DNA of 44,641 nucleotides from a virus (Duplodnaviria; Heunggongvirae; Uroviricota; Caudoviricetes), in the IMG/VR virus record IMGVR_UViG_3300028031_000001, positions 64,001 to 108,641 of that record. One strand, given 5' to 3'. A model generated the notes under the pieces. That model saw only the letters and a program-made list of their open reading frames with translations. It did not search any database and had not been told where the DNA came from. Shown piece by piece: positions 28,172 to 35,992 of the stretch. Both the position numbers and the translations under genes were made by a program. The stretch's first letter is position 1, and every line of letters begins with the position of its first letter.

Positions 28172-28473
28172 AACTTAATAAGCCAGAACTTGTAGATGAG
28201 CTAACGGACTATACTAGAAATCTATTCTTTAAGGTTAAGAGAAAACACGGTATCGAAGAGAGTAATAGAATAACTTGGAGACCTGATCAGATAGGCCCGA
28301 TAGTATTTGGATACTCAAAAGATGCGGAACAGTTTACTGTAGTATTTGATGCTACTATAGCCCACAAGTTTGACAAGAAGACTAAGAAGGCTATATTGGA
28401 CTCCATCGCCAAGACAATATCAGAGGCTTATGATGTCTTAAGCTTAAAAGATATTAAAGAGTCTATGGCCTAA
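28168..28473 (+). CDS. Hypothetical protein
   Basis: 101 aa, ATGA overlap with the upstream gene. Confidence 0.65.
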   Translation: MKLNKPELVDELTDYTRNLFFKVKRKHGIEESNRITWRPDQIGPIVFGYSKDAEQFTVVFDATIAHKFDKKTKKAILDSIAKTISEAYDVLSLKDIKESMA

Positions 28474-31564: not shown

Positions 31565-32323
31565 ATGAAAGTATTCACTGGTGGAAATGCGAGTCATAAA
31601 GTATATAGCGGACAGGTTGTTAAATATATTCGACCCTCTCTAGCTAAAAAAGAGTCTGGGTTATACAATACAAAATGGTGGGACTACCGTTTTCGGAATA
31701 ACGATAGCGGTAGTTTTTCACCTATGCATCCAATGGAAGCTACCCATCTTTTTGCCCATCACTTTATTATAGAATCAAAAAGGGCGCATTCTGAAAGAAT
31801 CGACAAAAATTCCTCCAATTTTAAAGTCCCCATCACTGATGGGAGTTTACTAAGAGCTAAGAAAGGTGTTGTGGTTAGCGCTTGGAAGGGTAGGCAGGCT
31901 GCTGATACGCTAGGAGTCCCATATAGTTATTGGTGTTCTCAAGCTATGCGCTATTCTGATATATTTAATTGGCAAACGCTACCTCTAATTAATCAAATAT
32001 ACTGTAAGACAGTTTCTGTAGAAAAAGATAATGCCATAAGTATAGTTGATTATATTTCAGAGCAATGGACTAAGCGAAAAAAATCTTACCTTCAAAGGGG
32101 GAGTAGCTTATTTTACAAAACCCACTACTCTAGCTTTCAACATCCATATCAAATCGAACACGCAACGCATTTATTAGATTATGCTAACCAGTCAAATGAT
32201 ACAACTAGGATGGTTATGGATTTGATAGAGGATGATTTTTTAAACGATAAATTAATACGAAATTATTTTGGCGAAAAAAGAGCTAAAATAATGTTAGAAA
32301 AAATTGCGGTATTATCCGCTTAA
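31565..32323 (+). CDS. Hypothetical protein
   Basis: 252-aa aromatic/basic ORF, first gene after the promoter. Confidence 0.7.
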   Translation: MKVFTGGNASHKVYSGQVVKYIRPSLAKKESGLYNTKWWDYRFRNNDSGSFSPMHPMEATHLFAHHFIIESKRAHSERIDKNSSNFKVPITDGSLLRAKKGVVVSAWKGRQAADTLGVPYSYWCSQAMRYSDIFNWQTLPLINQIYCKTVSVEKDNAISIVDYISEQWTKRKKSYLQRGSSLFYKTHYSSFQHPYQIEHATHLLDYANQSNDTTRMVMDLIEDDFLNDKLIRNYFGEKRAKIMLEKIAVLSA

Positions 32324-32339
32324 TCCGAGGAGTAGTAGA

Positions 32340-32594
32340 ATGGGCGAAAAACACAACAATAGCTTTAGAGAAGATTCAAGTTCAAAGCATCACGAAAAAG
32401 CGGTCGGACATGAAAGACCTTTAGCCTCAATGATAAAGCGCGGTAGGGATATTCACATCGAATTCGTAAATGATAAAGAACCAATCTCCGGCCTTATTAC
32501 AAGTTTTGATAAGTTTTCCATAACTGTGAATTTTGGCGGTGATATACCTATAACATATTTTAAACACAATATATCTGGCTTCACAGAGGTTTAA
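32340..32594 (+). CDS. hfq: Hfq/Sm-like RNA-binding protein
   Basis: GAGGAG SD then ATG 32340. ISGLITSFDKFSITV aligns to Hfq LQGQIESFDQFVILL, and YFKHNISG to VYKHAIST. Confidence 0.8.
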   Translation: MGEKHNNSFREDSSSKHHEKAVGHERPLASMIKRGRDIHIEFVNDKEPISGLITSFDKFSITVNFGGDIPITYFKHNISGFTEV

Positions 32595-32597
32595 TTT

Positions 32598-34001
32598 GTG
32601 AGTGAGGCGGAAGATAATGTCAAAGAGGCAATCGTTAAACAGTTGACTGGTAGTTTTGAGAACATCGAGTCTACATCAGAACCTATAGAGAAGTACGAAT
32701 TCGACGCTGAATTTCAGAGTCGAATCGCCTCTCTTATGGTTACAGATGTGGGTTTCGTTCGCAGAACTGACGGACTTATACTCCCAGACTATTTCGAAAA
32801 CGAATGTCAAGCTATTCTGGTCAACACTTGTCAGGAATATTTTGAAAGATATAAGAGTGTGCCCGCTAGTAATTCCGTATGGAAGCAACTGCTTGTGGAT
32901 AAAATTAAAGCTAAAAATCTTAGAAAAGATGTTGGGATTGAGGCCATCAAAGAAGTTTTCAAACTTCGTAAGAAAGATTTGTCCGATGCAAATTACGTAG
33001 TGGATGTTGTGGCTAAGTTTGCAAAGAATGCGGCGGTAGCTCAAGCAACTATGGAGATGATTGATTTAGCCGAGAAGGGTGACATGGAAGCCGCTCAAGA
33101 AATTATGGAGAAGGCATTTAGGGTTGGTGCTTCAGAAGAATTCACAGACCACGACTATTGGAATGAAATTGAGAGAAGAACCCAATACAGAAAAGATAAA
33201 CTGTCGGGATTGATTGCACCGGATGGCATCCCAACGGGAATTAAAAAGATCGATAGAGAGTTGTTCCACAAAGGCTGGGGCAGGAAAGAACTCACGGTAT
33301 TTATGGGTGGCGCTAAGAAAGGCAAATCTATGGCATTGGGTGAGTTCGCAGTTAGAGCGTCCAAGCTAGGCCACAACACGTTGTACTTAACGTGCGAAGT
33401 CTCTGAGGCCATAATACAGGATAGAATGGACGCCAACATATCATCCATAGAGATGGGTATGTTGGAATTAAACTTGAATGCGGTAGAAGCAAGTGTTAAA
33501 ACGAATAGAACTGCCGGGGTTGGAGAGCTTCGAGTTGCAGAATTTGCATCTGGAACTTTAAAGGTTAGTGGTATACGTAGAATTCTAGAAAGATATAGAG
33601 CTGATGGAATTATATTCGATATGATTGTTGTAGATTATGCGGACATCCTTGCTCCAGAGAACTACAATGCCAACAGCGCTATAGAAAACAGCAGACTGAT
33701 TTGGTTGGCTCTAAGAGCCTTAGCGTTTGAAGAGAATGCGGCTGTAATGACAGCAACACAAACTAATAGAGAAGGTTTTAAATCTACTGTGGCGAAGGCG
33801 GGGGACGTTGCGGACGACTTTAACAAGATACGGATAGCCGACTTGGTAATCTCAATCAACAGAGATGAAGATGAGACTAGAGAAGGTAAGGCTAGGTTGT
33901 TCTTTGCAGCGTCTCGAAATCAGGCTGGTGAATTTACAATACGCATCGAACAAGACTTGGCTAAAATGAAATTTGTTAAGAAGGTGACGGGGAGAGCATA
34001 A
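32598..34001 (+). CDS. dnaB: DnaB-like replicative helicase
   Basis: GIPTGIKKID, GGAKKGKS Walker A, IVVDYADIL Walker B, TATQTNR, ADLVISI, SRNQ. Confidence 0.9.
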   Translation: MSEAEDNVKEAIVKQLTGSFENIESTSEPIEKYEFDAEFQSRIASLMVTDVGFVRRTDGLILPDYFENECQAILVNTCQEYFERYKSVPASNSVWKQLLVDKIKAKNLRKDVGIEAIKEVFKLRKKDLSDANYVVDVVAKFAKNAAVAQATMEMIDLAEKGDMEAAQEIMEKAFRVGASEEFTDHDYWNEIERRTQYRKDKLSGLIAPDGIPTGIKKIDRELFHKGWGRKELTVFMGGAKKGKSMALGEFAVRASKLGHNTLYLTCEVSEAIIQDRMDANISSIEMGMLELNLNAVEASVKTNRTAGVGELRVAEFASGTLKVSGIRRILERYRADGIIFDMIVVDYADILAPENYNANSAIENSRLIWLALRALAFEENAAVMTATQTNREGFKSTVAKAGDVADDFNKIRIADLVISINRDEDETREGKARLFFAASRNQAGEFTIRIEQDLAKMKFVKKVTGRA

Positions 34002-34240
34002 TGGATGGATGGAAAGGTATAAAAAATGAATTGCCAACCGAATATACGCCTGTTAGAATACTTATCAGCGGTTGCATGTCAAGCTATGGGTATATGGTTG
34101 GCGCTGGTTGGGAGTTTTCTTATCCAGCTCACTATAAGTTACTAGATATAGAAAAAGTCACTCACTGGAAAACATTACCTGAGCAGAATTATGATTCTAG
34201 GATTTTACCTCCAGACGGGGAGAATTCTGTTGGACACTAG
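34001..34240 (+). CDS. DUF551-like small phage protein
   Basis: W..IKNELP...VTHWKTLPE. Confidence 0.7.
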   Translation: MDGWKGIKNELPTEYTPVRILISGCMSSYGYMVGAGWEFSYPAHYKLLDIEKVTHWKTLPEQNYDSRILPPDGENSVGH

Positions 34241-35312
34241 AGAACTAAATTCCCAACTAGAACAAATGGAGATAGAGGATTTTTTAGTTTGGTATGGGGT
34301 TGATTATAAAACGGGAACCGGAGCTTCTGGCCCTCAGCTTAACGTTAAAGAATGCCCATCTTGCGGTGGAAATTCTTGGAAGGTTTATATTGGAGCGGAG
34401 ACGGGATTAGGAAATTGTTTTCACGGAGATTGCGAAAAAACATTCAACAAATATTCTTTTATAAAATGCTTATTTAATAACAGCCATAAGGAAGCTATAA
34501 AAGAGATTGAAAAATATTCCAGAGAACTTGGTTGGAGACCTAAGAAAAAGAAAGCCCCGAAGAGACAATCGGTCACATTCATGATGCCCGAGACGGAAGA
34601 AATTAGTCGAGGTGGTATAGCTTATGATTACTTAATACGTCGGGGATTTTCAGAAGATGATATAGATTATTTTGGTTGGAAATATTGTAAAGAAGGTAGT
34701 ATAATTTTCTTTAATGAAAAAAATGAACAGTGCGAACAATGGTTTAGTAAGAGGTTGATATTTCCAGTTATAGATTTGAACGGAAAAATAGTTACCTTTC
34801 AGGGTCGGGACATAACCGATTCTGCGGACAAAAAATATAAATTTCCAGCAGGGCAACCGGGAACGGCAAAGTTTTTATATAACGGTAATAATGTTATAGG
34901 GAAAAGTCATATTATAATATGCGAGGGCGTAATGGACGTTGCCGCTACAAGATTTTCAATAGATCGTTCGCCAGAGTTGGAAGGTTGCGGTGTTGTAGGA
35001 ACATTCGGTAAGCACTTATCAAAATCAAAAAATAATAGTGACGACCAATATGGAAGGATTTTAAAGTTAAAAAATCTTGGCTTGGAAAAGGTTACATTTT
35101 TGTGGGATGGGGAGCCAAAAGCAATTAAGTCAGCTATAGAACACGCAATAGCGCTGAGAGGTCTTGGGCTTAATGTATCTGTCGCAACGCTGCCAATGGG
35201 TAAAGACCCAAACGAAGTATCAACTTCGGTAGTTATAAAGTCTATAAAGAATGCGGTAGTATTAACTCCATTACTTACTATAAAGTTGAAAATGCAATTC
35301 ATTAATAAATAA
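34191..35312 (+). CDS. DNA primase (Zn finger plus Toprim)
   Basis: CPSCGG...CFHGDC, YL..RG, RLIFPV, FQGR, ICEGVMD, LWDGE, KDPNE. True start may be ~34230 or ~34267. Confidence 0.9.
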   Translation: MILGFYLQTGRILLDTRELNSQLEQMEIEDFLVWYGVDYKTGTGASGPQLNVKECPSCGGNSWKVYIGAETGLGNCFHGDCEKTFNKYSFIKCLFNNSHKEAIKEIEKYSRELGWRPKKKKAPKRQSVTFMMPETEEISRGGIAYDYLIRRGFSEDDIDYFGWKYCKEGSIIFFNEKNEQCEQWFSKRLIFPVIDLNGKIVTFQGRDITDSADKKYKFPAGQPGTAKFLYNGNNVIGKSHIIICEGVMDVAATRFSIDRSPELEGCGVVGTFGKHLSKSKNNSDDQYGRILKLKNLGLEKVTFLWDGEPKAIKSAIEHAIALRGLGLNVSVATLPMGKDPNEVSTSVVIKSIKNAVVLTPLLTIKLKMQFINK

Positions 35313-35325
35313 ATTAGAGGAAATT

Positions 35326-35967
35326 ATGAAACCGATGATAATAACATTAACCGGCCCGTCTTGCGCTGGCAAAACTTACTTATTAAATAGTCTTTTAAAA
35401 GAATATCCGAATATATTTGCGAAACTATTAAGTGATACGACTAGAGAAAAACGAATTGATGAGAGTGAGGGTGACGAATATAATTTTATCAGTAAGGAAG
35501 ATTTTATACGTAAAAATATTAACGACGAATACTGTCAAACGGTAAGTTTTAACGGAATTAATTATGGAACTAAAAGGGAGGCGCTTACTTATGCCTTTGA
35601 AACTGGGTTAGTGCCAATAAGAATCGTCGAGCCCACAGGAATTGCGCAGTTCAGAAAAATATCACAAGAGCTAGGATGTATGTATTTTTCTGTATACGTG
35701 GACGAAGAACCTGTAGTTGTTATGTCTAGATGGATCGAACGTTATAGAAATGAAAAAAACCCTAACACAGAATATTACGCCCTTAGAATATTGCAAACTA
35801 TTTTTTCAGAAATAACATGGATAGATCAAGAGGACTACGACTTTTATTACAACGAAAGTATAGTCGACCCTCTCGAATTATCATACGCCTTAAGCAGAAT
35901 AGCCAGCGGCAACATGCCGATAAGTACGTGTAGAAAAATATTTCCTATGCCGGAAAATAATTCTTGA
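35326..35967 (+). CDS. gmk: Guanylate kinase-like nucleotide kinase
   Basis: LTGPSCAGKT, SDTTREKR..E.EG.EYNFIS...F, NYGT. Confidence 0.85.
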   Translation: MKPMIITLTGPSCAGKTYLLNSLLKEYPNIFAKLLSDTTREKRIDESEGDEYNFISKEDFIRKNINDEYCQTVSFNGINYGTKREALTYAFETGLVPIRIVEPTGIAQFRKISQELGCMYFSVYVDEEPVVVMSRWIERYRNEKNPNTEYYALRILQTIFSEITWIDQEDYDFYYNESIVDPLELSYALSRIASGNMPISTCRKIFPMPENNS

Positions 35968-35992
35968 CATTATACCGCTTTAAGTTTATTAT
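35964..35992 (+). promoter_or_regulatory. Sigma70 promoter
   Basis: TTGACA-17 nt-TATTAT. Confidence 0.75.

Follow-up and report, generated by a model that had tools for sequence, protein, structure and literature searches.

The DNA analysed here (the window, 44,641 nucleotides) is the right-hand 44.6 kb of the complete genome of an uncultured phage, 108,641 bp (~109 kb) long, which was assembled from a hydrothermal-vent metagenome and is characterized by direct terminal repeats, a G+C content of 39.7% and a tRNA array. An open reading frame (ORF) on its plus strand at 32340..32594 (ATG start, TAA stop included) encodes a protein of 84 aa (P0001), identified as Hfq-like by homology and fold, and a Shine-Dalgarno sequence, GAGGAG, is found at 32327..32332, 7 nt 5' of the ATG. 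The first-pass annotation had given these coordinates and the strong ribosome-binding signal correctly, and it had also placed the gene directly before dnaB, which is borne out: the TAA stop (32592-32594) is separated by 3 nt from the GTG start (at 32598) of a DnaB-type replicative helicase of 467 aa (32598..34001, plus strand; phrog_19, E=2.5e-71), whose own Shine-Dalgarno sequence, AGAGG at 32585-32589, lies within the last codons of the Hfq-like ORF, and the whole junction occupies 32585..32600. The upstream partner, p252 (31565..32323, plus strand), was recognized by a PHROG match (phrog_2500) and by related loci, and further downstream lies a DnaG-type primase (34191..35312, plus strand; PF08275, E=2.9e-10), which is conserved in related loci. 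The complete gene string comprises PhoH, p252, the Hfq-like protein, DnaB, a DUF551 protein, the primase, a guanylate-kinase-like protein, and CobT/VWA and AAA proteins.

Taken alone, the Hfq-like protein is a borderline case, with 21.4 bits (E=1.9e-4) against the Pfam Hfq family (PF17209; cut-off 27 bits) and 25.2 bits (E=1.1e-5) against TIGR02383 (cut-off 61.7). An exhaustive phmmer search recovered about 33 short homologues with 29-47% identity, and 32 of 33 relatives match PF17209 at E<0.01 (best E=3.4e-9), the homologue from Pseudomonas phage hairong scoring 31.4 bits and thus over the cut-off. The profile of 33 relatives finds solved Hfq chains in the PDB at E=1.4e-9, with Gram-positive Hfqs (B. 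subtilis, Listeria, S. aureus) as its top sequence matches, and the patterns FD[KN][FWY] and FKHAI..F are common to the family and these proteins. Comparison with E. coli Hfq by hhalign gave a probability of 94.7% (E=6e-8). The AF2 model, built on the family alignment, exhibits the Sm fold, with an N-terminal helix (residues 23-34) and five strands (37-42, 49-56, 60-64, 71-74 and 78-83) and a core pLDDT of >90. In a Foldseek search of the PDB the top 50 matches are all Hfq, and VIA-align against 50 Hfq entries returned Z scores of 10.3-11.7 and an rmsd of 1.0-1.4 Å over 60-61 residues, model residues 22-84 pairing with residues 6-65 of E. coli Hfq, at an identity to solved Hfq chains of 14-27%. 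Because the profile of the relatives, the profile-profile alignment and the fold agree, the homology is firm in spite of the borderline score of the single sequence: on the strength of these profiles and of the predicted structure, the 84-aa protein is a divergent, phage-encoded homologue in the Hfq branch of Sm proteins, and the first-pass claim of an Hfq homologue with an Sm fold can be regarded as settled.

The domain organization follows the model closely. Residues 1-22 (32340..32405) form a polar, His/Ser/Lys-rich N-terminal tail modelled with low confidence (pLDDT 63-66), and helix alpha-1 (residues 23-34, 32406..32441, delimited by DSSP on the AF2 model) carries G23-H24-E25, L28 and K33. 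The Sm1 region, with strands beta1-beta3 (residues 37-64, 32448..32531, from the hhalign map and column statistics), includes the motif G...FD as G51...F56-D57; it holds the changed distal residues E41, D45-K46, E47, P48 and S50 together with the retained proximal F56-D57-K58-F59. The Sm2 region, with strands beta4-beta5 (residues 71-83, 32550..32588, from the alignment), comprises T72, F74-K75-H76 (corresponding to Y55-K56-H57 of E. coli Hfq) and F81, the last invariant in the family; its motif [YF]-K-H-A-I reads F74-K75-H76-N77-I78. All these features lie on the plus strand. Further signatures of the family are G23-H24-E25, L28, T/S60-I61-T62, P70, T72 and F81.

A competing identity was suggested by single-sequence searches, in which residues 8-49 (window 32361-32486) match designed ankyrins (E=0.007, phmmer vs PDB) and long ankyrin-repeat proteins. 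We rejected these matches as chance, because profile, fold and synteny all point to Hfq; the likeness comes from a GHE...L...G.D stretch that is near the ankyrin consensus. This ankyrin-like stretch outranks true relatives in single-sequence searches and is a trap for automatic annotation. The PHROGs contain no family matched by the Hfq-like protein or by the hairong homologue, megablast of the region against phage records found no match, nor did a match appear when two family members were compared with PLSDB plasmids by tblastn. A search for related loci yielded none in the viral contig collection and one in metagenome contigs.

A protein with the Hfq fold could in principle mix into the hexamers of the host Hfq as a dominant-negative subunit, and the strand-pairing elements beta4 and beta5, whose residues are conserved in the family, are the same in both. 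The identity of only 14-27% quoted above argues against such mixing, and so does a metagenomic relative of 190 aa (P0028), in which the Hfq-like domain is naturally duplicated in tandem, with the H-E...FKH signature in both copies; this suggests that members of the family assemble into separate rings, and its two-domain chain would fit a ring with an even number of domains, made from half as many chains. We consider subunit mixing extremely improbable.

The hhalign map, together with the structural alignment, places the three RNA-binding faces of E. coli Hfq on the phage protein and reproduces the manual alignment made in the first-pass annotation (Y25 replaced by E41 and G29 by D45, with F39, D40, F42, K56 and H57 kept). 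In Hfq the proximal pocket reads uridine by means of Q8, residue 41, the aromatic residue at position 42 and K56, and H57 contacts the ribose 2'-OH, which favours RNA over DNA (PMC10628458). The equivalents in the phage protein are H24 for Q8, F56 for F39, D57 for D40, K58 for Q41 and F59 for F42 and, in the Sm2 region, F74 for Y55, K75 for K56 and H76 for H57, so that the residues of the uridine / 3'-end pocket (H24, K58, F59, K75, H76) are retained, and they fall in the columns of lowest entropy. Calculated over 33 relatives, the mean column entropy is 0.58 bits for the proximal face, 2.33 for the rim and 2.79 for the distal face, compared with 1.97 for the whole core. H24, D57 and K75 are invariant in the family, H76 is present in 31/33 members, position 59 is aromatic in all members but one, and G23, H24 and L28 are identical in 32/32 sequences. 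The proximal face had been described as intact before this analysis, and its columns are indeed the most conserved, with Q8 changed to H24.

The distal face presents the opposite picture. The A-A-N site of Hfq is formed by Y25, L26, N28, I30, L32, Q33, Q52 and T61 (PMC10628458); in the phage protein Y25 is replaced by E41, G29 by D45 (with K46 inserted), I30 by E47, K31 by P48, Q33 by S50, Q52 by I71 and T61 by G80, and the column of Y25 is among the most variable of all (E, T, K and others). The remodelling of this face reported in the first-pass annotation is therefore upheld, with Y25, I30, K31, Q33 and Q52 all replaced and the highest mean entropy of the three faces. Its companion claim of an intact rim goes too far: the stretch IKRGR is locally basic in this copy, yet unconserved and offset from the arginine patch, since R16, R17 and R19 correspond to I32, K33 and G35, which leaves K33 (the equivalent of R17) as the only basic residue of the patch; R34 and R36 are equivalents of E18 and V20 and lie outside it. 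K33 is also the only conserved rim position, occurring in 23/33 members. As judged from the alignment, the proximal-pocket columns are nearly invariant, the distal A-rich site is replaced and varies freely, and the arginine patch is shrunk to one conserved lysine.

This pattern bears on two readings in which the protein would act through small RNAs. According to the first, the ring would be a host-directed sponge: it would rival the host Hfq in binding the U-rich 3' tails of host sRNAs, or else mRNAs that depend on Hfq, and would thereby disable sRNA regulation during infection, its place in a replication operon setting its timing only. A kept proximal pocket with the distal face and arginine patch lost is what one would expect of a non-productive competitor, and the plasmid-borne Hfq3 of B. 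anthracis demonstrates that an Hfq from a mobile element is able to perturb host physiology; however, the toxicity of Hfq3 required the distal face (PMC5348863), which is lost here. The near-neutral core of the phage protein would also make it a poor competitor against the basic host Hfq, and the conserved place beside the helicase, described below, is unexpected of a general host-takeover gene, so that we regard a sponge as unlikely.

According to the second, the protein would be a full Hfq-type chaperone, pairing phage sRNAs with their targets, with a basic tail at its N-terminus, or another surface, standing in for the distal face and rim. This tail is disordered in the family, 1-52 residues long (mean 29 aa) and usually basic (mean net charge +3), K33 is conserved, and R34 and R36 add charge near the rim in this copy. 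On the other hand, the sequence of both tail and rim is unconserved across the family, the tail of 22 residues has a net charge of 0 in the protein considered here (pI 6.6), and no Rfam family was found in the window. The rate of RNA annealing is set by the number of rim arginines, and Gram-positive Hfqs, whose rims are weak, anneal RNA poorly (PMC10628458); in the phage protein 0/3 patch positions are Arg. Pairing of this kind therefore seems to us very improbable. The core is near-neutral throughout the family (net -1 here), and together with the uncharged tail this suggests that the non-specific RNA affinity of the present protein may be low.

The genomic context turned out to be as constant as the pocket. 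The helicase is 51% identical to that of phage hairong and 50-51% identical to Nickievirus helicases, and the nearest named phages are those of the genus Nickievirus, which infect Pseudomonas syringae, with RHEph10-like, Stenotrophomonas and SSU5-like phages farther away. Using the family HMM and tblastn, we found the order p252 (~240 aa), Hfq-like gene, DnaB, primase in 13/13 independent loci that extend far enough: this window, the Nickievirus phages hairong, nickie, phiK7B1, ZY21 and Nican01, a TARA marine contig, contigs from sludge and other metagenomes (several from Logan, JGI and ENA), and ~110-kb contigs in assemblies of Ectopseudomonas mendocina and Vibrio coralliirubri. The survey of dnaB synteny in related phages called for by the first-pass annotation thus returned the same arrangement throughout, and this strict linkage favours the last-named of the options offered there, a role linked to replication. 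The gap between the Hfq-like gene and the helicase gene ranges from -11 to +13 nt in 11 related loci and is once +63, a spacing that points to translational coupling of the two genes as the usual state. The order is kept among relatives whose helicases are only 37-52% identical and which come from very different habitats and hosts. In RHEph10 and SSU5, the p252-DnaB pair is kept without an Hfq-like gene, which indicates a stable accessory of the replication module and not a core replication factor.

The two ~110-kb contigs found in bacterial assemblies, L018 from Ectopseudomonas mendocina (110-kb) and L019 from Vibrio coralliirubri (115-kb), are relatives of the phage, and their occurrence there is consistent with a phage-plasmid or carrier-state lifestyle in part of the lineage. 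In the Vibrio locus, divergent PadR and HTH regulators are located upstream of p252. In Stenotrophomonas phage BUCTxx99 the slot between p252 and DnaB is taken by a 69-aa ORF (L013:2781-2990) that looks Sm1-like by eye; with an hhalign probability of 4% against the Hfq-like family and no Pfam match, a relationship is unsupported.

The p252 protein adjoins the helicase in Nickievirus, RHEph10, SSU5, BUCTxx99 and the metagenomic relatives. It exhibits an invariant K-WWDYR-like motif and a mostly helical AF2 model (pLDDT 74), with no Pfam or PDB sequence match and no usable Atlas match; the best Z score of the model is 5.1, on a helical segment, its AFDB relatives are all unnamed, and the model has no recognisable fold. 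By its position p252 could be an initiator or a helicase loader.

Such a neighbourhood invites the view that the Sm ring acts on protein or DNA in the replisome, as an adaptor or loader of the DnaB hexamer or as a binder of origin ssDNA. The unvarying gene order and the translational coupling with a hexameric helicase speak for it, and the phage order would parallel that of genes 38-39-40 of phage SPP1, which we take to encode an initiator-like protein, a small protein and the helicase. We know of no helicase loader with an Sm fold, which counts against this view. Hfq is itself capable of binding DNA and influences the replication of ColE1 (PMC4963395), and archaeal plasmids with Hfq-like genes beside helicase genes have been described (PMC3543421). 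What the phage family conserves is nevertheless the RNA-specific pocket for uridine, with its His in contact with the ribose 2'-OH, and RHEph10 and SSU5 do with p252 and DnaB alone. Complex prediction for DnaB and the Hfq-like protein gave a score of 0.00, which we count as evidence neither way. Altogether a direct part in the replisome of this sort appears improbable.

We also looked for RNA elements and transcription signals that could reveal a ligand. Promoter-like and terminator-like sites occur at chance level, the gene junctions of the relatives have no conserved sequence, and no positionally conserved RNA structure was found in six loci; since neither the junctions nor the neighbouring genes offer a conserved RNA motif or structure, no candidate RNA ligand emerges. 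As to expression, no RNA data set is listed as containing this DNA, and the one DNA data set listed is probably the source sample. The two best sigma-70-like sites of the region (11/12 matches each; 28370-28397 and 35964-35992, plus strand) bracket the lysis-like genes, PhoH, p252, the Hfq-like gene, the helicase, the primase and the guanylate-kinase-like gene, which suggests one long transcription unit between them, followed by a second unit from the CobT-like gene. The 5' part of p252 (31615-31795) folds unusually well, with z=-4.7 against mononucleotide shuffles for 31665-31764 of the plus strand and z=-2.7 for 31615-31765 of the minus strand. The minus strand there also contains a promoter-like TTCAGA-18-TATAAT (31795..31766) and a 10-bp hairpin (31656..31632), in an order that suits an antisense RNA of ~110 nt; this candidate may be due to chance, because its position is unconserved in five relatives.

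Conservation centres on the RNA-specific pocket for uridine and 3' ends, and the most economical reading of these data is therefore a protein that assembles into rings, binds U-rich RNA or the 3' ends of RNA, and acts post-transcriptionally in the service of the replication module; we judge this reading, taken as a whole, about as probable as its negation. The phage protein would form an Hfq-like ring whose pockets, each lying between two adjacent subunits, would take up single-stranded U-rich RNA or the 3' ends of RNA, and the N-terminal tail would emerge at the end which in Hfq is on the proximal side. It would not join sRNA and mRNA as E. coli Hfq does, such matchmaking being improbable because the distal face and the arginine patch are lost. 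Most likely it would be a single-surface RNA binder for the replication module, by which the helicase-primase transcript may be protected, its translation repressed, or a replication-controlling RNA assisted. A post-transcriptional role is favoured by the fixed, usually coupled place before the helicase and by the parallels in T4 and the Thermococcales discussed below, although the position of the gene may reflect expression timing only. In other words, because only the uridine pocket is kept and the place before the helicase is constant, the protein probably binds RNA in a specialised capacity linked to phage replication, instead of acting as a classical matchmaker of small RNAs.

A broader proposition, which we put forward tentatively and consider possible though doubtful, is that, in a large clade made up of phages and phage-plasmid-like elements of ~110 kb, the replication module counts the Sm ring among its working parts; the ring would either dock on the DnaB hexamer or handle an RNA required for replication, for which primer or R-loop RNA, a copy-control antisense RNA and the helicase-primase message would be the candidates. 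If true, it would reveal, together with the archaeal plasmids and the effect of T4 GoF on gene 41 mRNA, that Sm proteins and replicative helicases are recurrently linked in mobile elements, a connection hitherto unrecognised.

Hfq is the central RNA matchmaker of many bacteria, whose three RNA-binding surfaces have been dissected thoroughly, and the phage family amounts to a natural separation-of-function variant: of these surfaces selection retained the uridine / 3'-end pocket alone, while the protein gained an N-terminal tail and its gene became fixed before that of the replicative helicase. A partner RNA or protein, if found, would reveal the use of a single-surface Hfq and could also explain why phages and plasmids recurrently carry Sm-fold genes next to helicase genes. 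Cultivable relatives, namely the Pseudomonas syringae phages nickie and hairong, make the question directly testable.

The existence of the family is visible in databases: the Nican01 homologue is already annotated as 'hfq' in GenBank, some relatives pass the Pfam threshold, in the Atlas the protein groups with clusters that bear PF17209 or PF21979, and UniProt lists 'Hfq-like domain-containing' proteins in mycobacteriophages. In the literature searched we came upon no experimental study of an Hfq homologue from a phage, and nothing on phage-encoded Hfq or on Hfq combined with Nickievirus; a study of phage T4 from 2025 terms its structure-only family the first phage LSm-like family (PMC12152347). 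What is described here is a phage Hfq family cut down to the proximal pocket, provided with an N-terminal tail and fixed before the replicative helicase.

Among known proteins, the closest in structure are the bacterial Hfqs, above all those of Gram-positive species (B. subtilis 3AHU/3HSB, L. monocytogenes 4NOY/4NL2, S. aureus 1KQ1), with Z about 11 and an rmsd of about 1.1 Å over 60 residues. The likeness extends to Sm1, the [YF]KH of Sm2, the proximal pocket residues and the weak rim, and K58 of the phage protein, at the place of residue 41, matches the lysine that S. aureus Hfq has there (YDKY). Unlike bacterial Hfq, the phage protein has His at the Q8 position, inside an invariant G-H-E motif, lacks the distal Y/F25, I/F30 and Q52 as well as the arginine patch, and exhibits a near-neutral core and a disordered tail that is N-terminal instead of C-terminal; it is also phage-encoded, located before a helicase gene, and alone scores below the Pfam gathering cut-off. 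The Nickievirus proteins (hairong_042, nickie, phiK7B1, ZY21, Nican01_00034) belong to the same family (family HMM E=1e-18 to 1e-24), that of hairong being 33% identical to the protein described here, and their gene order, PhoH, p252, Hfq-like gene, DnaB, is identical. They differ in that their hosts are Pseudomonas syringae strains, whereas the present one is an uncultured phage of a vent metagenome, and in that some copies (Nican01) have long insertions in the beta3-beta4 loop. Hfq3, encoded by the B. anthracis plasmid pXO1, is likewise an Hfq copy on a mobile element, but it is near-canonical and its phenotype depends on residues of the distal face (PMC5348863), which the phage protein has lost.

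The nearest functional parallel is provided by the phage-encoded Sm-fold proteins GoF, MotB.1 and Frd.2 of T4, as the GoF(D25Y) mutant makes the mRNA of gene 41, which encodes the replicative helicase, more stable; compared by description, the proteins of this type, found in Tevenvirinae, are about 140 aa long, were recognized by structure only, and possess an extra C-terminal domain and no Hfq sequence motifs (PMC12152347). The 84-aa phage protein is devoid of such a C-terminal domain. To our knowledge, the genes of GoF, MotB.1 and Frd.2 do not lie beside the helicase gene on the T4 map. The parallel in gene arrangement comes from the ZF-Hfq-like proteins of Thermococcales and Methanococcales plasmids, where, as in the phage, an Hfq-like domain and a replicative helicase are encoded together on a mobile element, and in the Thermococcales plasmids they share one transcription unit (PMC3543421). 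In these archaeal plasmids, however, the Hfq-like gene is located downstream of a helicase of another family, as opposed to upstream in the phage, and most of the proteins carry an N-terminal C2H2 zinc finger, whereas the tail of the phage protein (residues 1-22) contains no Cys.
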